A stretch of DNA of 29,517 nt from an uncultured Fibrobacterota bacterium. GTDB lineage: Bacteria > Fibrobacterota > OXYB2-FULL-49-7 > CAYNYI01. Shown here piece by piece: positions 255-16,707 of the stretch. Location: NCBI GenBank assembly GCA_964401455.1, contig CAYNYI010000026.1, forward strand, positions 1 through 29,517, read 5' to 3'. Numbering within the stretch: position 1 is the first letter of the stretch; every line of letters starts with the position of its first letter. The translations under genes and the position numbers were made by a program. A model generated the notes under the pieces. That model searched no databases, was not told the origin of the DNA, and was given only the letters and a program-made list of their open reading frames with translations.

Positions 255-3020
255 GTGAAAAACAGTACCGTTTTCAGAGACTATATCAGAAAAGAATTCA
301 AAGGTTATATAAAAGCCAGAGAAAGCCGGGTTCCTTCATCTGATGTCCTGAAGGTTGATCTACATTGCCATGACCACAATTCCGACAGGCCCGAAGAAAG
401 AATAGGCCGTATCCTTAACGCGCCCGAAACCTGGCTCCCTACAGATCTCCTTATAAAAACGCTTAAAGACCATGACATTACAGCCCTCACGGTCACCAAT
501 CATAACAATGCAAGGACATGTTATGAGCTGCAGGACAAGGGGCATGATATACTGACAGCGGCTGAATTTGACTGTAATATGCCGGAATACAAGACGTGTC
601 TTCATGTTCTTACATACGGATTTACACCGGAACAGGAAAGTGTTCTGAATGTAAAAAGACAGGACATTTATGAATTTGCCGAATATACTTCCGATCAGAA
701 TCTTCCGACAGTTTTAGCTCATCCTCTTTATTTTAAGAACAGGGGTAAGATACCCGGACTGGAGATGATGGACAAACTTGGATTGATGTTTGAGAGATTT
801 GAAGTAATAAACGGGCAGCGTGATACATGGCAGAACCTTCTTGTTGCGAAATGGCTGGAAAGCATGGATGAGGAGAGTATTAACGAAACCGCTGCCCGGA
901 CCGGAATAGATCCCGGCAGATACTGCAGGAACCCATATAGAAAAACAGCATGCGGCGGGTCGGACGACCACATGGGAATTTTCGCCGGGCTGACAGGTAC
1001 CTATCTCAGTATGTCCGGACTCGACAGAATTAAAAAGGAAAAATCAAGTTCCGAAGCGCTTCTCGAGGCCCTCAGAAACGGAGAAACGATTCCTTTCGGA
1101 AACTATACCCAGAATGAAAACCTGAATATCGCCCTTCTCGATTATTTTTGTCAATGTGTCTTGAACCTTAAAGATCCCGGTCTTTTAAGAATCATGCTCC
1201 ACAAAGGAAGTGAGCAGGACAAAGTCCTCTCTTTCGCTATCGTAAACGCAGTTCATGAACTCCGCCGACATAAATATACAAGTAAATTTTTGCGTTTATT
1301 TCACCTTTCTATGCACGGCAAAAAAACCAATCTTATCGACCGGCTTATGGTTGGTAAATCAACCAGACCTCTTCTTAAAGAAATCAGCAATATCTCTTCG
1401 GTTCGAAGAAAAGATCCGAAAGATCTGCCGGAGCAGCTGATAAAATCGGTTGATAAAATATTTGAACATCTTGTGGAGCTGGCCAAAGAAAGAATATCTA
1501 AAAAAGCCTCTGCGGTAATGAATTCCAATCCGAGCGGCGAAGATTTTATGGAAATTTTTCGTAAAATTGAGCTCCCGTCTTATCTCAGAAAATTCGGAAG
1601 AGAAAAAGAAAAAGCAGGAGAAGAAAATAATGACAGCTCTGTCTCATCCGTTGATGCCGGCAGGATTCTGGACGGACTTTCCTTCCCTGTTCTTGCCGCG
1701 GGGCTTATTAATTCCGTATTTTTCGCGACAGCGAACGTGATGTATAATAAAAGATTATATCTGAATGAATTTTCCGGAAAACTGGGAAAATACCAGCAGC
1801 CGGAAAGGGTGTTATGGCTTACCGATACATTCGGTGACCATAACGGAGTATCAATGAGCCTCCGAAATATTTTGAAGGAAGTACAGGAAAAAGATTATCC
1901 CCTGGATTTTCTGGTCTGTTCGAATGATTGTCCGGAAGAGCCGCATCTGAAAGTATTCAAACCTGTCGCTGAATTCACCCTGCCGGTATATAAGAACCAG
2001 GTCTTCAGGGTCCCGAATATACCGAAAATACAGGAGTTTTTCTATAATAAAGGATATGACAGGATCATATGCTCGACCGAATTATTCATGGGGGCCGTTG
2101 CACAGTACCTGAAGCACGCTTTTAATGTTCCCGCATGGTTTTTCGTTCATACCGACTGGATGGAATTTGCCGAAAAAACAATGAAGTTCAATGATGACGA
2201 TCTTAGCAGACTGAAAAGAATGATGAGGATTTTCTATAATTCTTTCGATGGCCTTTTTGTTCTTAACTCTGAAAACCGTGACTTTTTGAGCGGGCATACC
2301 ATGAAGTTTCCCGGTGAAAAAATTCATGTTACAAAACACTGGGTAAACAGGGCCCTTTTTTATAAAAGAGAAAATGTTTCCAAAAAAGTTTTTCCCGGAG
2401 TTTCTGAGGAAGAGCAAGTTATTCTTTATACCGGCAGGATTTCACATGAAAAAGGCGTGTTTGAATTACCGGGAATATGCCGTAGAGCCGCCGAAAAATC
2501 CGGCAAGGTTAAATGCGTGATTATTGGAAAAGGGCCGGCTTTATCTGAACTTAAAAAAGCCTTCCCCGAGGGTATTTTTATTGACTGGATTCCACAGGAA
2601 AAACTTCCCGAAATGTATTCTGCCGCCGATCTTTTTGTTCTGCCGTCCACTTTCGACACTTTTGGCAGGGTCGTTCTGGAGGCCCTCAGCTGCGGCCTTC
2701 CCGTTTGCGCATATAATACCAAAGGACCGAGAGATATAATAGGATCTTCCGGCTGCGGTTTTCTGGCCGGAAATGCCGAAGAATTAAAAAACGGTTCAGC
2801 AGGTCTCTTGAGAGATGCCGAAGGTTTAAGGCATATGGGTGATCTGGCCCTTAAAAGAGCGGAGGGTTTCGAAAAAGAAAAGATTTTTCCTGAAATACTT
2901 GCCAGGACCGGTCTAACAAATTATAATAATAAAAAAAACGTTTCCGGTTATTCCCGGGTAAAAGAAGAAACCGGTAAACTTAAACAGCAAGAAGTTATCC
3001 CTGACATGATAAATGCCTGA
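255..3020 (+). CDS. Bifunctional fusion protein: N-terminal PHP-family metal-dependent phosphoesterase domain joined to a C-terminal GT4 (GT-B fold) glycosyltransferase.
   Basis: 921-aa ORF with a GTG start. The N-terminus carries PHP motifs: VDLHCHDHNSD (HxH), AEFDC, LAHPLY and GGSDDHMG (GSDxH-like). A hydrophobic linker (FPVLAAGLINSVFFATANVM) follows. The C-terminus carries the GT4 signature, including ILYTGRISHEKG and the EX7E-type motif FGRVVLEALSCGLPV. It overlaps the next ORF by 8 nt. Confidence 0.8.
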   Translation: MKNSTVFRDYIRKEFKGYIKARESRVPSSDVLKVDLHCHDHNSDRPEERIGRILNAPETWLPTDLLIKTLKDHDITALTVTNHNNARTCYELQDKGHDILTAAEFDCNMPEYKTCLHVLTYGFTPEQESVLNVKRQDIYEFAEYTSDQNLPTVLAHPLYFKNRGKIPGLEMMDKLGLMFERFEVINGQRDTWQNLLVAKWLESMDEESINETAARTGIDPGRYCRNPYRKTACGGSDDHMGIFAGLTGTYLSMSGLDRIKKEKSSSEALLEALRNGETIPFGNYTQNENLNIALLDYFCQCVLNLKDPGLLRIMLHKGSEQDKVLSFAIVNAVHELRRHKYTSKFLRLFHLSMHGKKTNLIDRLMVGKSTRPLLKEISNISSVRRKDPKDLPEQLIKSVDKIFEHLVELAKERISKKASAVMNSNPSGEDFMEIFRKIELPSYLRKFGREKEKAGEENNDSSVSSVDAGRILDGLSFPVLAAGLINSVFFATANVMYNKRLYLNEFSGKLGKYQQPERVLWLTDTFGDHNGVSMSLRNILKEVQEKDYPLDFLVCSNDCPEEPHLKVFKPVAEFTLPVYKNQVFRVPNIPKIQEFFYNKGYDRIICSTELFMGAVAQYLKHAFNVPAWFFVHTDWMEFAEKTMKFNDDDLSRLKRMMRIFYNSFDGLFVLNSENRDFLSGHTMKFPGEKIHVTKHWVNRALFYKRENVSKKVFPGVSEEEQVILYTGRISHEKGVFELPGICRRAAEKSGKVKCVIIGKGPALSELKKAFPEGIFIDWIPQEKLPEMYSAADLFVLPSTFDTFGRVVLEALSCGLPVCAYNTKGPRDIIGSSGCGFLAGNAEELKNGSAGLLRDAEGLRHMGDLALKRAEGFEKEKIFPEILARTGLTNYNNKKNVSGYSRVKEETGKLKQQEVIPDMINA

Positions 3021-6093: not shown

Positions 6094-7260
6094 ATGTCCG
6101 AAAAATATCTGTTTTTATATCTTAAAACCGGGGGTGGGCACCTTGCTCCCGCTAAGGCCGTTGCCGGTCATATCAAAGAATGCTCTGACAGAGAGATTGA
6201 TATTTCCCTTGTTGACGGTTTTGCCGAGGCCCCTTCTTTAATAAAAAAAATCATTGAGGACGGCTACAGTTTTTCTCAGTCCAGGGCCAAGTGGATTTTT
6301 GAATCTCTGTATGCTCTCAATAAAATTCCTCCTGTAGCGAAACTTGTCAACCTTATTGTTTCAGCGGCAGTGAAGCCCTATCTTAAAAAAGTCATCCTTG
6401 AAAACGGGCCTAAAAAGATAGTGATATTTCATTTCTTTCTTATTAAGCCCGTATTTGATATTCTTGAAGAGCAAAAAATGAAGACTCCGGTAATAACCGT
6501 AGTTACCGATCCTTACAGCGCCCATCCCATATGGTTTATTCAGAAGAAACAGAATTTTGTCGTATTCTCCGAGGACCTTAAAAGTTATTCTGCAAAGAGA
6601 AAAGTCCCTGAGGATAATGTTAAGGTCTTTCCTTTTATCGTTGACCGTAAGTTCTCGGTGAGGCCCTCCGGAGAAATGATTTCAGCTTACAGGAAAAAAC
6701 ACGGATTTTCAGAAAACGGAAGAATAATTCTTATTATCGGGGGAGGCGACGGCATCCCCCGGGGGAAATCCATTCTTAAAAAGATCCTGAAGTCCGGGAT
6801 TGATTCCGAAATCGCTATTGTATGCGGCAGGAATGAGAAATTGAAAGCACGTTCGGCAAAACTGAAAGAAAAATATAAAGCGGACAATCTTAAAATATTC
6901 GGTTTCATAGACTTTGTTCACGAACTTATCAGTATCTCTGACCTGGTGATTACAAAGTGCGGCGCTTCAACTTTTATGGAAATTCTTCTCACGGGAAAAG
7001 TTCCCCTTATAAATAATTATATATGGGAACAGGAGAAAGGAAATGTGCAGTTTGTTACCAAAAATAAAATGGGAGTTTATGAGAAAAGAGTCAGAAAAAT
7101 CCCAAAAGTCCTGAACAGTTTTTTCTCAGATTCTGAAGGTATAAAAAATTACCAGAACAACATAGACAAGGCGGGCCTTAAAAGCGGTACTGCTGAAGTC
7201 TCTGAGTATATAGTAAATTTTGATAGGGATAAGAAGAAAGATGTCGAAGGAAAAGCATGA
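6094..7260 (+). CDS. GT28-family 1,2-diacylglycerol glycosyltransferase of the MGDG-synthase/UgtP/YpfP type.
   Basis: 388-aa ORF. LYLKTGGGHLAPAKAV (G-loop), LIIGGGDG, AIVCGRNEKLK, ITKCGASTFME and EQEKGNVQF match UgtP and MGDG-synthase motifs along the whole length. Confidence 0.85.
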   Translation: MSEKYLFLYLKTGGGHLAPAKAVAGHIKECSDREIDISLVDGFAEAPSLIKKIIEDGYSFSQSRAKWIFESLYALNKIPPVAKLVNLIVSAAVKPYLKKVILENGPKKIVIFHFFLIKPVFDILEEQKMKTPVITVVTDPYSAHPIWFIQKKQNFVVFSEDLKSYSAKRKVPEDNVKVFPFIVDRKFSVRPSGEMISAYRKKHGFSENGRIILIIGGGDGIPRGKSILKKILKSGIDSEIAIVCGRNEKLKARSAKLKEKYKADNLKIFGFIDFVHELISISDLVITKCGASTFMEILLTGKVPLINNYIWEQEKGNVQFVTKNKMGVYEKRVRKIPKVLNSFFSDSEGIKNYQNNIDKAGLKSGTAEVSEYIVNFDRDKKKDVEGKA

Positions 7261-8821: not shown

Positions 8822-9674
8822 TTATTTTTCCAGGCCGGATTTTTTAAGGTAATGACTGAGTACCGCATTGCCCTTTTTTGCGGGAATGAGTTTCTCGCCG
8901 TCGGAATAACCTTCCTCCCGTCCGGAAAGTTCCTTAATCAGTCTGTCTCTCCAGATCTTTAACCTTTTTTCCCCGTTCGGGACAGAAGCCAGGTCTGTTT
9001 TCTCCTGCGGATCATTTTCAAGGTTAAAAAGCTGTTCATGTCCGTTTTCCGTAAACCAGATATATTTTTCTTTTCCATCGGTTAGAAACTGAATGGAATG
9101 ATGCCGGACTATATGTTCGCCGTGGATGTATTCGCGCCAATCGGTTTTCTCGCCTTTCGCGAGTCCGGCCGCGGAGATACCGTCAATTGAATCCGGTATT
9201 TCCTGACCCGCGAGTTCAAGCATGGTCGGCATAATATCACGAAGCTCAACCGGATTGTCGCAGAGCGCACCGCGCTTTATCCCGCTGTCTTTCGGGCCCT
9301 TGATTATGAGAGGAACGTTCGCGGAGCCTTCATAGGGAAGGTTTTTTCTGAAAAGATTATGGTCGCCCAGCATTTCTTGTTTTCGGAGCCAGGGCAGGTA
9401 GTCGTCGATTGCGTCGAGATTATCACGGTTTTTGGTGCGGGCAAAATGGAGGTATCCGACCCTTCCATGGTTTCCTTGTTTCAAACCGGTAAAAAGTCCG
9501 GTCCTTGCCGGAACGCGAGAAGGTGTAGCCGAATATGCGTTAGTGAATACCGTCCCTTCGGCGCAAATGCCGGTCAAGATAAGGCGTGTGGACAACAGGG
9601 TGGCCGAGGTGGCTGAGGCAGTCGCCGCGCCACTGATCGGCGAAAATAAAGACAACATTGGGTTTATTACTCAT
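8822..9674 (-). pseudogene. Sulfatase-family (alkaline-phosphatase superfamily) remnant that is frameshifted and degenerate.
   Basis: A genuine sulfatase N-terminus (MSNKPNVVFIFADQWRGDCLSHLGHPVVHTPYLDR) is encoded from the ATG at 9674..9672, and that frame hits a stop at 9542..9540. The remainder (ICAEGTVFTNAYSATPSRVPARTGLFTG, then PYEGSANVPLII, DIMPTMLELAG and LENDPQEKTDL) continues in the frame of the listed ORF 8822..9658. The formylglycine position of C/S-x-P-x-R reads Ala (A-T-P-S-R). About 150 aa of core, including the GKWHLG and DNG regions, is missing. The total is about 320 aa against a typical sulfatase of over 450. Confidence 0.65.
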
Positions 9675-9766: not shown

Positions 9767-9848
9767 TCTTATTATTGCTTGTAACGGCATACAGGTCTTA
9801 TTATATTAAAGCTAAGTTTTTATTTTGTTTTTTTTCAGGTGGCTATTT

Positions 9849-10385
9849 ATGAATATGAAAAAAGCGTTATTTGTGTCGGGGTTTCTTTTTGTTTTGAACT
9901 TTACTTCTTATGGATTAAATGCGAGAACTGTAAACGGAAACTCCTGGACCGGTGATGTCGCCGTAAAAAACGAGATTATGAGAGTAAAAGTCCACCCTTC
10001 ATATCTTGACATTGAGGCTGAAATTTCCTTAAAAGCCCATACTCCGAACGCACAAGTTCCGGACCCGTCGCTTCCTCTTGAAATACATGGAAATTTCATT
10101 CTGCCTGAGAACAGCGTTATTTCCGGAGCGCTTTTATGGAACGGAAACACGATCCTTCAGGCAAAACTTAAATCAAAGGAGACGGCGACAATGGAATATG
10201 AGGACGTTGTTGACCGTCAGCCCGCTCCCCCGCCGAGGCCGAGAGACCCCATGATAATTGAAAAATTATCCGGGGATACATATAATCTAATGATTTATCC
10301 CTTTTCCCGCGGCCAGTACCGCAAAATAAGAATTCGGTACATTGTCCCCAGAATTTTTCCAACGGTACAGTCGAAAACCAGATAA
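9849..10385 (+). CDS. N-terminal fragment of a secreted protein: Sec signal peptide plus a VIT (vault inter-alpha-trypsin) domain. It is probably the 5' part of one gene interrupted by a frameshift.
   Basis: The start is preferred at the ATG 9849 (MNMKKALFVSGFLFVLNFTSYGLNA) because an AGGTGG SD lies 6 nt upstream; the track's 9825 start lacks one. VIT-like motifs include HGNFILPENSVISGALLWNGNTI, EYEDVVDR, DPMIIEKLSGDTYNLMIYPFSRGQYRKIRIRY. The ORF ends at a TAA just after an A-run. Confidence 0.6.
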   Translation: MNMKKALFVSGFLFVLNFTSYGLNARTVNGNSWTGDVAVKNEIMRVKVHPSYLDIEAEISLKAHTPNAQVPDPSLPLEIHGNFILPENSVISGALLWNGNTILQAKLKSKETATMEYEDVVDRQPAPPPRPRDPMIIEKLSGDTYNLMIYPFSRGQYRKIRIRYIVPRIFPTVQSKTR

Positions 10386-10423: not shown

Positions 10424-11887
10424 ATGCCCGAAAATTTCCTCCTGGAGCTCGGATCGGGAGACGGAGGAGAAGAAATAGACAGAGTCAGGCTCCGGGCGGG
10501 CGGAAGCTTTTTTACTTATTATCTGCCGTCCAATATTTTCGCCGACTATTCGGTGTCAAAATATTATCTGAGTGTGCCCGGTCTCGGGCAAAAGGCGATT
10601 ACCCAGGCCTCAGAAATAAAGACATCTGTTTATGATCTTACCGCCGCGGGTGCCGATGTGGGCATGCTGCTTGATAAGGGTGACACTAATTATACCGAGT
10701 TTGCCCCGACAAAACCGGGCGAGAGGAAGTTTGACGATATGGTCCGGTTTTTATCAAATATAGATGAAGGGTATCTGCTGAGCAATATAGCCGGCAATGA
10801 ATTTGAAAATCCGCCGGGATCGTCCAACCATAAAAAATACCGTGAAGAGCGGGCGGCAGAATTTAAAATCAGTATTGAGAGGACATTTTCTCTTCTTTCC
10901 GAGGATGAGAAAATACTTAAACATATTGTAATTCTTACTGTCGGGCCTAAATTTACATCTGAGACGATTGAAAATGATTTCAGCCATTTTGAAGACCCTG
11001 AAATAAACGGAGTCAGTATATCGTCATATTTTAATACCCGGGAGGGTTCCGGTTACTGGCCCGGTGTACCTCTTTTTGAAATTCAGAAAACTTATCCTGT
11101 TCTTGATTCTTCCTACAAATCAGGAAGATTTTTGGTGCCTGCTTTCCGCAAGGCAAATTTTAATGTAAAAGTTTCCAATGCTTCAAAATCTTACAATTAT
11201 AACCTGGTCATGGAATCGAGCGGCGGCCGTCCAATTCCTCCTAAATTCAGCTTTCTCGGCCACAGCATCTCAAGGTGGGATACGGATATTGAATGGAAGG
11301 CTTTGGACGTTTACGGTGAAGAAATAGCCTCCTATACCCAGAGTCCGGATGTTTACAGGACTTCCAACGACACCGGACTGGTTAAAATGTGGGCTGGTTC
11401 GGACCTGGCCTTCAGTGAAATATTCAATTATGGCGGATTGGGCCCTGTCTATGGAATCGTTACGGAGGATTATTCTCTATTAGCTCTTGAAGAAGATTCT
11501 GTAAGCGCGGAATTGCAGGAAGCTCTGAGCGATTCCGGTGTGCCGATGCTTACTGATGATGAGATTTTTGTCCTTGAAACGGATACCGCGACGAGCAGCA
11601 TAGAGAAAGAATCCCCCGGTATATCTGCCGCGCCGTATTTGGCCGTAAGCCCGAACCCCTTTAATCCGGTAACCCGCATAGCTTTCAATACTAAAAAAGA
11701 CGGTTTTGTCCTTCTGGAGATATATGACCTTTCAGGAAGGCTTGTGGCAACAGTGATGGACCGTTATCTTAAAAAAGGCGAGCATAGCGTCATGTTCAGC
11801 GGCGCTTCGCTTCCCAGCGGAATTTTCGTCTGCAGACTGAAAACCGGGTCGGGAATAAGAACGGCAAGGATGATGCTGATGAAGTAA
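10424..11887 (+). CDS. C-terminal part of a T9SS substrate protein ending in a type-A Por/T9SS C-terminal sorting domain. It has no signal peptide of its own.
   Basis: The C-terminal 80 aa (SPNPFNPVTRIAFN...LLEIYDLSGRLVATV...GIFVCRLKTGSGIRTARMMLMK) form a canonical T9SS CTD. This reading frame is open from 10286, upstream of the first ATG, and there reads continuously as protein (…NQISSLAHIFNIEESLMPENFLLELG…). A strong terminator follows. Confidence 0.6.
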   Translation: MPENFLLELGSGDGGEEIDRVRLRAGGSFFTYYLPSNIFADYSVSKYYLSVPGLGQKAITQASEIKTSVYDLTAAGADVGMLLDKGDTNYTEFAPTKPGERKFDDMVRFLSNIDEGYLLSNIAGNEFENPPGSSNHKKYREERAAEFKISIERTFSLLSEDEKILKHIVILTVGPKFTSETIENDFSHFEDPEINGVSISSYFNTREGSGYWPGVPLFEIQKTYPVLDSSYKSGRFLVPAFRKANFNVKVSNASKSYNYNLVMESSGGRPIPPKFSFLGHSISRWDTDIEWKALDVYGEEIASYTQSPDVYRTSNDTGLVKMWAGSDLAFSEIFNYGGLGPVYGIVTEDYSLLALEEDSVSAELQEALSDSGVPMLTDDEIFVLETDTATSSIEKESPGISAAPYLAVSPNPFNPVTRIAFNTKKDGFVLLEIYDLSGRLVATVMDRYLKKGEHSVMFSGASLPSGIFVCRLKTGSGIRTARMMLMK

Positions 11888-13471: not shown

Positions 13472-14320
13472 ATGGATTTTGCGAAGAACTATTCTTTGTC
13501 CCGGTTTCCGGAAAGCGACCCGGTTTTTACGCGTCCGTCCTTTGCCGGTGTAGAAAGAGTAAGCACAGAAAAGTATTTCTGGGATAATAAAAGCCATGGC
13601 CCGGGTCAAGACCGCTATATTATTCAGTTCACTACCGGAGGCCGCGGATTTTTTGAAAGTGCCGGAAAAGTATGGAGCGTGCCCTGCCACACCGCGTTTC
13701 TGATCGACTTCAAAACAGATTTTAAATATTACTATAAAGATGAAGGTAAGCCCTGGAGTTTCAGCTGGATTAATTTTAATGGTCCTTCCGGGAAAATACT
13801 TTTTGAGAAACTTATTACACTGTTCGGACCTGTGGTGGGCATTCCCGCTTCATCATATTCATGGATGATGCTTAATGATATAGTGGAAAAGATGTCAAAA
13901 GGCGGATTCAAGGATATTTACCGGTGTTCCAATTTTTGTAACAATTTATTTCTACAGCTTTATAAAGACCTTCGCAGCGGAATAGGCGGTTTCAGTTTCT
14001 ACGATGCGGCCGGCTATATGTCGGACAATCTTGACCGGAACATAGACATTTCTCAGATAAGCCGGAAATTTAACCTTTCGCGGGAGCATTTCAGCCGGCT
14101 TTTTACGAAGGCGGCGGGTGTGAGTCCGGGAAGGTATTTGAAGAATCTCAGGCTCGAACGGGCAAAGGAGCTTCTGCGGCGGGGCGATATGAATCTTTCT
14201 ATGATTGCAAAGCAAACAGGGCTTGGCGACGCCAATTATTTTTGCCGTGTTTTCAGGGCCCATACGGGTCTTACCCCACGGGCGTTCAGCAAAACCTTCG
14301 AGGGGACCCGGAAACTGTAG
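13472..14320 (+). CDS. AraC/XylS-family transcriptional regulator: N-terminal cupin-like sensor plus C-terminal double HTH.
   Basis: 282-aa ORF. The C-terminus (ISQISRKFNLSREHFSRLFTKAAGVSPGRYLKNLRLERAKELL...ANYFCRVFRAHTGLTPRAFS) is the canonical AraC HTH signature. It is divergent from the GH4 gene. Confidence 0.9.
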   Translation: MDFAKNYSLSRFPESDPVFTRPSFAGVERVSTEKYFWDNKSHGPGQDRYIIQFTTGGRGFFESAGKVWSVPCHTAFLIDFKTDFKYYYKDEGKPWSFSWINFNGPSGKILFEKLITLFGPVVGIPASSYSWMMLNDIVEKMSKGGFKDIYRCSNFCNNLFLQLYKDLRSGIGGFSFYDAAGYMSDNLDRNIDISQISRKFNLSREHFSRLFTKAAGVSPGRYLKNLRLERAKELLRRGDMNLSMIAKQTGLGDANYFCRVFRAHTGLTPRAFSKTFEGTRKL

Positions 14321-14323
14321 ATT

Positions 14324-15259
14324 TTATCGTAAAGAATCCCTATACATTTCAATGTTTTTAAAAAGCAGGGAGATATACTCCTTTTCAAGAGAAATGAGAT
14401 CTTCATCTCTGAGAGCGAGCCAGTAGCTAAGCCAGAGAAAGCGTCCGGCGAGTATTATTTCCGGAATTTTTGCTTTCATATCCTGCGGAAAAGCCAGATT
14501 GGCAGAAAAACTCTTTACGAACGGAGAAAAAAGAAATTCAGGGTTTTCAAATCCGCAGCATCCGATAAAATGCGCAGCATCGAAAAGCGGATGCTTATAT
14601 CCGCAGAACTCCCAGTCTATGACTGAGGAAATTTCATCGCCTTTCCATACTATATTCAGGGGATGAAAATCTCCGTGACAAAAAACCGCGGGAGAGGCTT
14701 TTTCGGCATCAGGAATTATTTTCAGAACAAAATCAAGTTCTGTTTTTGTTTCGCTTAGAAGCTCAGGAGAATTTGTCTGAAGCTTTTCCCGGAAACCTTT
14801 CAGAAAGGCGCTGAAAATAAATACTCTTTTGGCGGCTGCTTCCGGGGCATTTTTTAATGCGTACAGTTCGTTAAGAAACGCGGAGGAATTCCGGGCTTTT
14901 TCCAAATCATGAATGAAAGCCGGTCTTTCCGGCGGACTGCCTTCCGCGAAAGGCCTTATCTGAAAAAAGCCTTCTGAAGTTTTAAATACATGGTCTTTTT
15001 CGCCGAATTCACAGTAGGGGTGAATCCTGTCAAGCCCCATGTTCTTTAGAGACGACATTATCCGCGCGGTGTCTTCTTTATATTCAGCTTCTTCGGGTCG
15101 TATTTTTTCAAGAAGAAAGTTGCCGCCCGACTCTGAAAGGCACATGTATCTTTCTATTATACGTTCGGGGCTGCCCTGGACTTCATCCGTTTTCCGGTAA
15201 GATTTTATTTTGATTCCGGCGGCATCAAAAAGGTTTGAGAATTCTGTTTCGGAAATTAT
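14324..15259 (-). CDS. APH-family (protein-kinase-like) small-molecule phosphotransferase, a candidate sugar-1 kinase or choline kinase. The N-terminus extends upstream of the listed ATG and has a non-canonical start.
   Basis: Brenner motif FCHGDFHPLN and metal-binding VIDWEFCGY lie in the C-lobe. The Gly-loop/Lys region (QGSPERIIERY..GGNFLLEK) aligns with APH(3') GMSPAKVYKL..ENLYLK and lies partly upstream of the listed ATG at 15145. The frame is open back to a TAA at 15280..15278, with no in-frame ATG/GTG/TTG. A GGAGGAGG SD (minus strand, 15269..15262) sits 5-8 nt before ATA (15259..15257) and ATT (15256..15254). The coordinates given assume the ATA start. Confidence 0.7.
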   Translation of the reverse strand: MISETEFSNLFDAAGIKIKSYRKTDEVQGSPERIIERYMCLSESGGNFLLEKIRPEEAEYKEDTARIMSSLKNMGLDRIHPYCEFGEKDHVFKTSEGFFQIRPFAEGSPPERPAFIHDLEKARNSSAFLNELYALKNAPEAAAKRVFIFSAFLKGFREKLQTNSPELLSETKTELDFVLKIIPDAEKASPAVFCHGDFHPLNIVWKGDEISSVIDWEFCGYKHPLFDAAHFIGCCGFENPEFLFSPFVKSFSANLAFPQDMKAKIPEIILAGRFLWLSYWLALRDEDLISLEKEYISLLFKNIEMYRDSLR

Positions 15260-15984
15260 ATCCTCCTCCGCATGTATTTATGGATTACTATACCGGCGCC
15301 TATCCCTGAATAATTTGGCATGATGTTCTCTCTTTTTCCTCCGATATCTCTGTTGTCCGGAATATAGGCTTTTTGAAAGGCGAAAGCCTTAAAGGACATA
15401 AAAGGAAGCGGGCGAAAATGGAGTTCACCCCTTGCCTCAAGGCCGGGGCGCGGGCTGTGATAGTACTTATCCCGGAATTTGAACATATGATAGCCGGCAA
15501 TGAGTCCGAAGCCGGAACTAAAAAACGCTTTTGACGATCGGGTCATTTTTTTCGGGGCATTAAAAAGTTTAAGGCCGATTATGTTCCAATCGATATAAAA
15601 TTCTGAAGCGCCGTGTTCCTCGTTGGATGAGAAAACAAATGTGTTGGGTACAAGCATATGTCCGATATAAATCTCGTCGCCGGCAAAGCCCCGGTACTTT
15701 TTGGGGATGCGGTGTTTTACATCGGATTTCCTGAGAAGGGCTTTACCGTCGATATCAATTACGGTGCTTTTCGAAAATGTTTTAAAAAGCAGGTTTTCTC
15801 CGAATAAACTGTTGATTGCCATACCGCCGGCAAGGTGAATATCGAGCCGGACCGGTATTTCTCCTGAGGGATTTTTCTTTACACTTCGAATATCCTTTCG
15901 GCTGCCCCTGTGTCGTCTTTCCGAAGACAAAACCGGAAACCCGGCAGATAAGCATAAGCATATAGTCATAACCGTTTTTATCAT
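15256..15984 (-). CDS. Probable body of a sugar-1-phosphate nucleotidylyltransferase (NTP_transferase), separated from its N-terminus by a frameshift in an A7 run. The alternative reading is an unrelated hypothetical protein.
   Basis: The 242-aa ORF's frame is open upstream only to 16006. Restoring one A in the A7 run (T7 on + strand at 15999-16005) joins ...DSYNNCGIKK to TESISMIKTVMTI..., which resembles RmlA AGIREILIIS. HRGSRKDIRSVKKNPSGEIPV resembles MurU [21 protein letters not shown], and HLAGGMAINSLF resembles ETGGGIFKAL. Its stop (15258..15256) overlaps the kinase start region. Confidence 0.45.
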   Translation of the reverse strand: MIKTVMTICLCLSAGFPVLSSERRHRGSRKDIRSVKKNPSGEIPVRLDIHLAGGMAINSLFGENLLFKTFSKSTVIDIDGKALLRKSDVKHRIPKKYRGFAGDEIYIGHMLVPNTFVFSSNEEHGASEFYIDWNIIGLKLFNAPKKMTRSSKAFFSSGFGLIAGYHMFKFRDKYYHSPRPGLEARGELHFRPLPFMSFKAFAFQKAYIPDNRDIGGKRENIMPNYSGIGAGIVIHKYMRRRI

Positions 15985-16154
15985 AGAGATGCTTTCTGTT
16001 TTTTTATACCGCAGTTATTATAAGAATCCATTGCGCGGACTATGGATGGTTTTCCGTCTATTTCGAAACAAACCTTATGCAGGTCGGCGGAACCCATTCG
16101 GGTTCCTTTGCCTCCGGCAAGGATAATGCTGTATTCGAGGCTTTTGGGTTTCAT
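15981..16154 (-). CDS. N-terminal fragment of a sugar-1-phosphate nucleotidylyltransferase (G-loop) that ends prematurely after about 57 aa.
   Basis: MKPKSLEYSIILAGGKGTRMGSADLHKVCFEIDGKPSIVRAM matches the NTP_transferase N-terminus (MurU MKAMILAAGKGERMRPLT..PKPLVPVAGQPLIE). The ATG at 16154 is preferred over the track's 16220 because nucleotidylyltransferases begin 5-10 aa before the G-loop. The stop falls immediately after an A7 homopolymer. Confidence 0.55.
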   Translation of the reverse strand: MKPKSLEYSIILAGGKGTRMGSADLHKVCFEIDGKPSIVRAMDSYNNCGIKKQKASL

Positions 16155-16232: not shown

Positions 16233-16261
16233 TTGACAAAGTCATGAAAAAGAGCTATATT
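16233..16261 (+). promoter_or_regulatory. Near-perfect sigma70-type promoter for the GntR-led operon: -35 TTGACA at 16233-16238, 17-bp spacer, -10 TATATT at 16256-16261. GT-N-AC-type half-sites (GTCAT) flank it.
   Basis: Read directly. The -35 is consensus, spacing is exactly 17 bp and the -10 is 5/6. Downstream, AAAGGA SD lies 6 nt before the TTG start at 16303. GTCATgaaaa…TGTCATagTTGAC repeats overlap the promoter. Confidence 0.5.
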
Positions 16262-16302: not shown

Positions 16303-16707
16303 TTGGCATTTAAATTTTCTCTGAACAGCTCTTCCGGAGTTCCTTATTACCGGCAGATAGTTAATCAGGTAACTTACGGAGTGGTTAACAGCATCTTTGA
16401 GCCGGGCGAGCGTCTTCCGACCGTGCGGCAACTGGCGGTGGACCTTCAGGTAAACCTGAATACCGTTTCAAAAGCCTATACAGAACTCGAATTAAAAGGA
16501 ATAGTCAATACCCAGCAGGGGACCGGGACATTTATTTCAGAGAATAAGGTGCGTATCGATCCTAAAACGAAAGAAAAAGGGCTCCGCCAGCTATGTCTGA
16601 ATTTTTTGAATGAAACCGCGGCGCTCGGTATAAAAGCAGAAGACTCACTTAAAGAATTAAAGAAAATAGAATCCGAAAGAAAAAGAAACCCGCACAAAGG
16701 AAATTGA
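16303..16707 (+). CDS. GntR-family transcriptional regulator of the short YtrA-like subfamily.
   Basis: 134-aa ORF with a TTG start. The winged HTH LPTVRQLAVDLQVNLNTVSKAYTELELKGIVNTQQGTGTFIS is the canonical GntR N-terminal domain. A short C-terminal helix follows. The stop overlaps the next gene. Confidence 0.85.
   Translation: MAFKFSLNSSSGVPYYRQIVNQVTYGVVNSIFEPGERLPTVRQLAVDLQVNLNTVSKAYTELELKGIVNTQQGTGTFISENKVRIDPKTKEKGLRQLCLNFLNETAALGIKAEDSLKELKKIESERKRNPHKGN

Follow-up and report, generated by a model that had tools for sequence, protein, structure and literature searches.

An APH-fold kinase gene from an uncultured Fibrobacterota bacterium with ATA or ATT at the position of its start codon

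In Escherichia coli, the codons AUA and AUU gave 1–2% of the AUG level of initiation (0.02–3% across constructs), and AUU is used by infC and pcnB (bioRxiv 10.1101/063800). In Staphylococcus aureus, infC and ccpN (both AUA) and cvfC1 (AUU) carry extended Shine–Dalgarno (SD) sequences, and reporters of cvfC1, ccpN and citZ reached ∼10% of AUG, with the AUA codon of citZ being confined to one strain lineage (PMC13009471). Re-initiation in E. coli requires initiator tRNA and is helped by an SD sequence (PMC2268962). The locus described here is a small-molecule kinase gene on the minus strand of contig CAYNYI010000026.1 (assembly GCA_964401455.1) of an uncultured Fibrobacterota bacterium; the whole stretch that was analysed, positions 1 to 29,517 of this contig (29,517 nucleotides), is referred to as the window. 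The real N-terminus of this kinase lies at an ATA (15259) or an ATT (15256) codon, and its annotation is 37–38 residues too short.

The N-terminus of the kinase

Both NCBI (MFP4520693.1, 'MAG: phosphotransferase [Fibrobacterota bacterium]', where MAG stands for metagenome-assembled genome) and the list of open reading frames (ORFs) give a 273-residue product at 14324–15145, starting at the only ATG of the frame. Upstream of this codon, the minus-strand frame stays open for 44 sense codons, from 15277 down to 15148, and, as the original prediction had stated, it contains no ATG, GTG or TTG in this stretch before an in-frame TAA is reached. By our own calculation, such a lack is expected in ∼10% of random open 44-codon stretches at 43.5% G+C. 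Counted to the TAA stop at 14326–14324, the frame comprises 311 codons from the ATA and 310 from the ATT. The elements concerned are as follows.

14324–15259, minus strand: putative full-length coding region of the APH-fold kinase (Pfam, alignment of 21 homologues, AlphaFold2 model, Foldseek).
15143–15145, minus strand: only ATG of the kinase frame and NCBI-annotated start (ORF list, NCBI record).
15161–15175, minus strand: codons, lying before the annotated ATG, for G-S-P-E-R, the conserved loop that joins strands 1 and 2 and positions the nucleotide (alignment, codon table, model).
15254–15256, minus strand: in-frame ATT, candidate near-cognate start, which would come from TAATG by a G to T change at 15254.
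15257–15259, minus strand: in-frame ATA, candidate near-cognate start; the ancestral ATG, within an ATGA overlap, likely stood here.
15256–15258, minus strand: TAA stop of the 242-residue ORF upstream, overlapping both candidate starts.
15262–15269, minus strand: GGAGGAGG, an SD-like motif lying within CGG AGG AGG, the final Arg codons of the ORF upstream.
15278–15280, minus strand: in-frame TAA, the 5' limit of the kinase frame (codon reading).
15256–15984, minus strand: upstream gene, a conserved hypothetical protein of 242 residues with a signal-peptide-like N-terminus.

The 311-residue translation from the ATA was aligned with 21 homologues of 298–347 residues, all of them longer than the 273 residues annotated, which cover 87–99% of the query at 27–36% identity. 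Upstream of the annotated Met (Met45 in the numbering of this alignment, A1), Gly35, Pro37, Arg39 and Arg43 are invariant and Ser36 is nearly so; these residues belong to a conserved motif, G-S-P-E-R-x3-R. The starting Met residues of the homologues align exactly with Ile7 and Ile8, the residues encoded by the ATA and ATT codons, and do not lie downstream of the annotated Met. The original prediction had placed the N-terminus of the family at this pair of codons and the kinase N-lobe, with its nucleotide-positioning loop, before the only ATG; the alignment bears out both placements, and the structural model supports the second.

The AlphaFold2 model built from the homologue alignment has a predicted local distance difference test score (pLDDT) of 92.5 and a predicted template-modelling score of 0.90. 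Residues 1–37 (pLDDT 79–94) form a helix (3–12), a strand (17–21), a loop (28–32) and part of a second strand (36–41) in this model. The annotated Met, residue 38 counting from the ATT, lies within strand 2 and is thus an internal Met. Profile alignments to PDB entries are colinear, with position 68 corresponding to residue 69 of 2ppq and position 65 to residue 63 of APH(3')-Ia, indicating that the long form has a normal N-terminal length. According to the model, a bilobal kinase fold with its N-lobe sheet and nucleotide-positioning loop would be obtained only if translation starts at 15259 or 15256.

The NCBI call is therefore truncated, because the ATG is preceded by the codons for the invariant loop, the helix, strand 1 and one half of strand 2. 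It is highly improbable that the 273-residue protein is the true product and the upstream similarity a relic. ATG 15145 is the sole canonical start and the choice made by NCBI, but a protein made from it would start halfway through strand 2, lacking strand 1 and the invariant GSPER...R loop, and would be shorter than the uniformly longer homologues; in addition, the SD check of the window found no SD sequence before this codon. Modelling or expression based on the database entry, which lacks strand 1 and the loop, would give a broken kinase, and gene callers limited to ATG, GTG and TTG will repeat this truncation wherever a start has drifted to a near-cognate codon. Other near-cognate codons of the open stretch (ATA 15277, which directly follows the in-frame TAA, ATC 15214, ATA 15208, ACG 15190 and ATA 15160 and 15157) were rejected as candidate starts, all being without an SD sequence.

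The kinase matches the Pfam family APH (PF01636) over residues 46–238 with 62.3 bits (cutoff 23.2). The catalytic motif HxDxxxxN (HGDFHPLN) and the metal-binding Asp of IDWE are found in the window kinase and do not vary across the alignment. In a Foldseek search the best match was the type II homoserine kinase 2ppq (template-modelling score 0.71), with further matches to APH(2''), Mph macrolide kinases and LicA at 0.6–0.7. The strand-3 motif LLEK resembles the LTLYE motif of type II ThrB. Scores against equivalog models of type II homoserine kinase (ThrB2) fell below the required level (NF003558, 24.4 bits against 271; TIGR00938, 15.8 against 255.9), and those against AmgK and choline-kinase models were far below threshold. 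The genome scan gave 264 relatives and the metagenome scan 300, mostly from Syntrophales, Desulfobacterales and Omnitrophota; in the locus comparison the kinase homologues stand alone among varied neighbours. The family is thus a widespread uncharacterised APH-fold group with variable genomic neighbours. The homologue in locus L027 is fused to a GIY-YIG-like N-terminal segment.

Start codons of the family and the stop/start overlap

The loop motif and the starts upstream of it were located in 160 related loci taken from genomes and metagenomes. These comprise 129 distinct loci, two of which are cut by a contig end, leaving 127 complete ones. A canonical start is found 20–60 codons before the loop in 125 of the 127 (ATG in 73, TTG in 33 and GTG in 19), with the most common distance being 28 codons (40 loci), followed by 27 (13 loci). 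The window has ATA at 28 codons and ATT at 27 codons before the loop Gly. The other two, L022 (about 2700–3000) and L113, were considered as parallel start-less cases and rejected, since each has an ATG 86 codons upstream of the loop; none of the 127 distinct complete loci therefore lacks a canonical start. L022 and L113 form a small clade in which this ATG gives an N-terminal extension of ∼58 residues before the GSPER loop.

The closest homologue (P0002, locus L001) starts GTATGATCC (M-I-P-P-E-T), with ATGATC at the junction, and overlaps an unrelated AhpC gene through ATGA; the junction in the window reads GATATAATTTCC (I-I-S-E-T-E), with ATAATT in place of ATGATC. The protein, genome and metagenome searches all ended at 36–37% identity and gave no closer orthologue; the genome collection scanned does not include the source MAG. 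The comparison with orthologues that the original prediction had proposed could thus be made with homologues of at most 37% identity, of which the closest has ATG and all complete loci have canonical starts. Since a canonical start is present at all 127, the change to ATA/ATT appears to be specific to the lineage of the window, and the comparison indicates that a non-canonical start codon is not a trait of the kinase family.

The ORF immediately upstream ends ...CGG AGG AGG ATA TAA, with its stop at 15258–15256. As had been predicted, both candidate starts overlap this stop (ATAATT), with the ATA sharing two bases with the TAA and the ATT one. Three other −4 overlaps are present in the window (at 7257, 16704 and 15984), this being the usual type there. 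Homologues of the upstream protein are rare: three were found among 5.8 billion proteins, at 43–49% identity, and the family has six representatives among 1.84 billion proteins; no Pfam or NCBIfam model matches it. Its C-terminus, ...HKYMRRRI, shares its end column with those of the three homologues (...YMSRRI, ...YTTKKL and ...YLKRQM), indicating that the TAA is the native stop. A native end thus overlaps a native beginning, so that neither a concealed frameshift nor a fusion or rearrangement joint can be accommodated between them. The invariant residues of the upstream family include a run of five (N-I-M-P near the C-terminus, among others), and its members adjoin OmpA-like, PBP and Por-secretion-tail genes.

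The frames of the two genes adjoin and overlap, which would also be seen if kinase and upstream protein formed a single fusion product, through ribosomal frameshifting or through an indel that conceals one long gene. Such a fusion is extremely improbable, however, as the upstream protein has a native C-terminus and looks secreted, its homologues do not adjoin kinases, the kinase homologues are stand-alone proteins and the in-frame TAA (15280) closes the kinase frame upstream. The pairing of the kinase with the 242-residue ORF was not seen at the homologous loci of either gene.

The strong SD sequence predicted at the ATA/ATT pair is present as GGAGGAGG (15269–15262), which occurs once in the window. 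The spacings of 5 and 8 nucleotides originally given for it hold only for the first GGAGG (15269–15265), as the octamer itself ends 2 nucleotides before the ATA and 5 before the ATT. Expressed as spacers, GGAGG precedes the ATA and AGGAGG precedes the ATT by 5 nucleotides each, with genes of the window having 5–10; a 5-nucleotide spacer after AGGAGG is also found at the ATG genes 20613 and 13365. The RNA around the site is less structured than shuffled sequences (z = +1.53). Shuffles yield a mean of 0.94 copies of GGAGGAGG per window, so that the single copy observed is at chance, and AGGAGG-N5-ATH is likewise at expectation (1.01). Judged from the sequence, neither the lack of a start codon nor the SD-like motif is statistically unusual on its own, and their significance rests on the homology.

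Origin and present use of the start

Each candidate codon differs by one base from a canonical overlap, and most probably the present state arose by one base change in the lineage of the window, from an ancestral start that would have lain within the stop/start overlap. The most likely route would be ATGA to ATAA by a G to A change at 15257, which would have turned the ATG of the kinase into ATA and the TGA of its neighbour into TAA at once; TAATG to TAATT, by G to T at 15254, would be an alternative single step. The original prediction had offered a point mutation of the start codon as its alternative, and this is most probably how the state came about.

The same one-base distance from ATGA or TAATG would also arise if the organism has an ATG and one base of the contig, which comes from a metagenome-assembled genome, is wrong or represents a minor allele. 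However, NCBI and an independent Logan assembly of public reads agree in listing the 273- and 242-residue products (MFP4520693.1 and MFP4520694.1). If AGGAGG were followed by an ATG, gene calling would be expected to yield ∼311 residues, and both sources give 273. Most other genes of the window have end-to-end domain matches, so that the base quality looks good. An assembly error thus looks unlikely, and little credence is given to this explanation.

The reading preferred here, with only middling confidence, is that initiation continues at a low level at AUA/AUU after the lineage-specific base change. The non-AUG mechanism put forward in the original prediction is a plausible one. Most likely, AUA or AUU would still be accepted with initiator tRNA by ribosomes that end at the TAA or are recruited by AGGAGG; if the measured cases are a guide, full-length kinase would be produced at a few percent to ∼10% of the AUG rate. 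No stop or frameshift occurs over the 310 codons and all 31 invariant columns are kept, and no disabling lesion beyond the start codon (frameshift, premature stop or lost catalytic residue) was found in the kinase frame.

Several observations weigh against continued initiation. At 10 of the 56 columns with high conservation the window kinase departs from the consensus, which is more than for any other of the 22 sequences; it is also the most divergent of these, and departures track divergence (ρ = −0.75), which confounds their use as a test of relaxed constraint. Gene remnants nearby, a nucleotidyltransferase (NTP-transferase) stub and a shortened sulfatase, show that decay occurs in this genome. 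The SD-like motif is not particular to the kinase: AGG accounts for 23% of the Arg codons here, and the same AGGAGGAT occurs in a 49%-identical homologue of the upstream gene (locus L087), which ends AGC AGG AGG ATC TGA. No same-strand gene is called downstream of that homologue, suggesting that AGGAGG probably predates the pairing with the kinase. Finally, the SD-like motif, the overlap and the intact ORF are equally expected just after an inactivating mutation. The idea that the SD-like motif compensates for a weak start is weakened by the chance-level frequency of the octamer, the commonness of AGG and the presence of AGGAGGAT in the upstream-gene homologue.

These points bear on the possibility that the start-codon change ended useful expression, leaving a young pseudogene that carries no further lesions yet. 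Recent inactivation is a serious possibility, if a doubtful one. It would fit the canonical starts at 127 of 127 complete loci, the lack of a close orthologue (none above 37% identity) that might share the non-canonical codon, the neighbouring remnants (16154–15981 and 8822–9658), the large number of departures from conserved columns and the low level of near-cognate initiation in E. coli, just 0.02–3% of AUG (bioRxiv 10.1101/063800). On the other hand, all 310 codons are read without interruption and no invariant residue is lost, divergence accounts for the departures, and a strong SD sequence with a stop overlap is the context that gave ∼10% of AUG in S. aureus, the lineage-specific citZ included (PMC13009471).

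It is rather unlikely that ATA/ATT is maintained by selection as an attenuated start that depends strictly on coupling inside the stop/start overlap. Were this so, ribosomes that had just finished at the TAA and were retained by AGGAGG would account for nearly all kinase synthesis, since IF3 disfavours de novo starts on AUA/AUU. The amount of kinase would then be tied to that of the upstream secreted protein as a small, constant share of it, and the G to A change, in bettering the stop of the neighbour while weakening the start of the kinase, would represent a conflict at a doubly coding base.

The nucleotidyltransferase remnant is a 57-codon ORF on the minus strand (15981–16154; MKPKSLEYSIILAGGKGTRM...) that matches only positions 2–41 of the 160-position NTP_transf_3 profile and stops at TGA 15983–15981, overlapping the start of the 242-residue ORF as ATGA. 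The rest of a nucleotidyltransferase was found in no frame around it, and the stub resembles what is left of a gene after replacement of its main part. A tblastn search with the stub against 88 loci (86 of them kinase loci) gave no match. An ancestral operon of NTP-transferase and kinase (LicC/LicA- or MurU/AmgK-like) that was broken by insertion was considered and is unsupported, with only 40 NTP_transf_3 positions surviving. The sulfatase-like ORF (8822–9658, minus strand, 278 residues) matches positions 25–68 of the 301-position Sulfatase profile and then passes directly into SGSH_C; the catalytic domain apparently lacks ∼230 residues, with the frame kept.

The kinase converges with an AraC-family regulator on the plus strand (13472–14320), with 3 nucleotides between their stop codons (14320–14324), and no terminator-like hairpin was found between the two genes. 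A near-consensus σ70-like promoter on the plus strand (16233–16261; TTGACA, 17 nucleotides, TATATT; 11 of 12 matches) precedes a GntR-family gene at 16303 and falls in the divergent region that this gene has in common with the cluster of stub, 242-residue ORF and kinase. Elsewhere in the window, a 186-residue ORF (9825–10385, plus strand) contains only the C-terminal part of a VIT domain and is followed after 38 nucleotides, in another frame, by a 487-residue ORF with a Por secretion tail (10424–11887, plus strand); the two may be one gene split by a frameshift.

Comparison with described systems

As in 2ppq, the nearest solved structure, the kinase has the APH/eukaryotic-like-kinase fold, with HGDxxxxN, the Asp of IDWE and an N-terminal layout of helix, strand 1, loop and strand 2. 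It differs from the solved kinases in its low identity to them (just 12–17%), and its family has its own GSPER loop and DWEFCGxK motif.

The junction resembles coupled overlapping gene pairs of the ATGA and TAATG types in that both genes lie on the same strand, the stop overlaps the position of the downstream start and an SD sequence lies in the last codons of the upstream gene. Unlike in such pairs, the overlap reads ATAA/TAATT and the downstream start is non-canonical.

The locus shares with E. coli infC and pcnB and with S. aureus infC, ccpN, cvfC1 and citZ an AUA or AUU at the start position and a strong SD sequence at a working distance. In infC, ccpN and cvfC1 the unusual codon is conserved across species and its use has been demonstrated experimentally, whereas for the window kinase its use is predicted from the sequence and the relatives, at ≤37% identity, have canonical starts. 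In S. aureus citZ, too, a lineage-specific base change affects an otherwise normal gene. Unlike in infC, pcnB, ccpN, cvfC1 and citZ, the codon in the window sits in a stop/start overlap. The locus is a clean natural case in which to ask how much translation survives a change from ATG to ATA or ATT when a strong SD sequence and a terminating ribosome are on site. Either outcome, a near-cognate start behind a strong SD sequence or the loss of a start, is a further example of known phenomena and not a new system; with infC, pcnB, ccpN, cvfC1 and citZ already known, a functional near-cognate start here would add an example to this group, not a principle.

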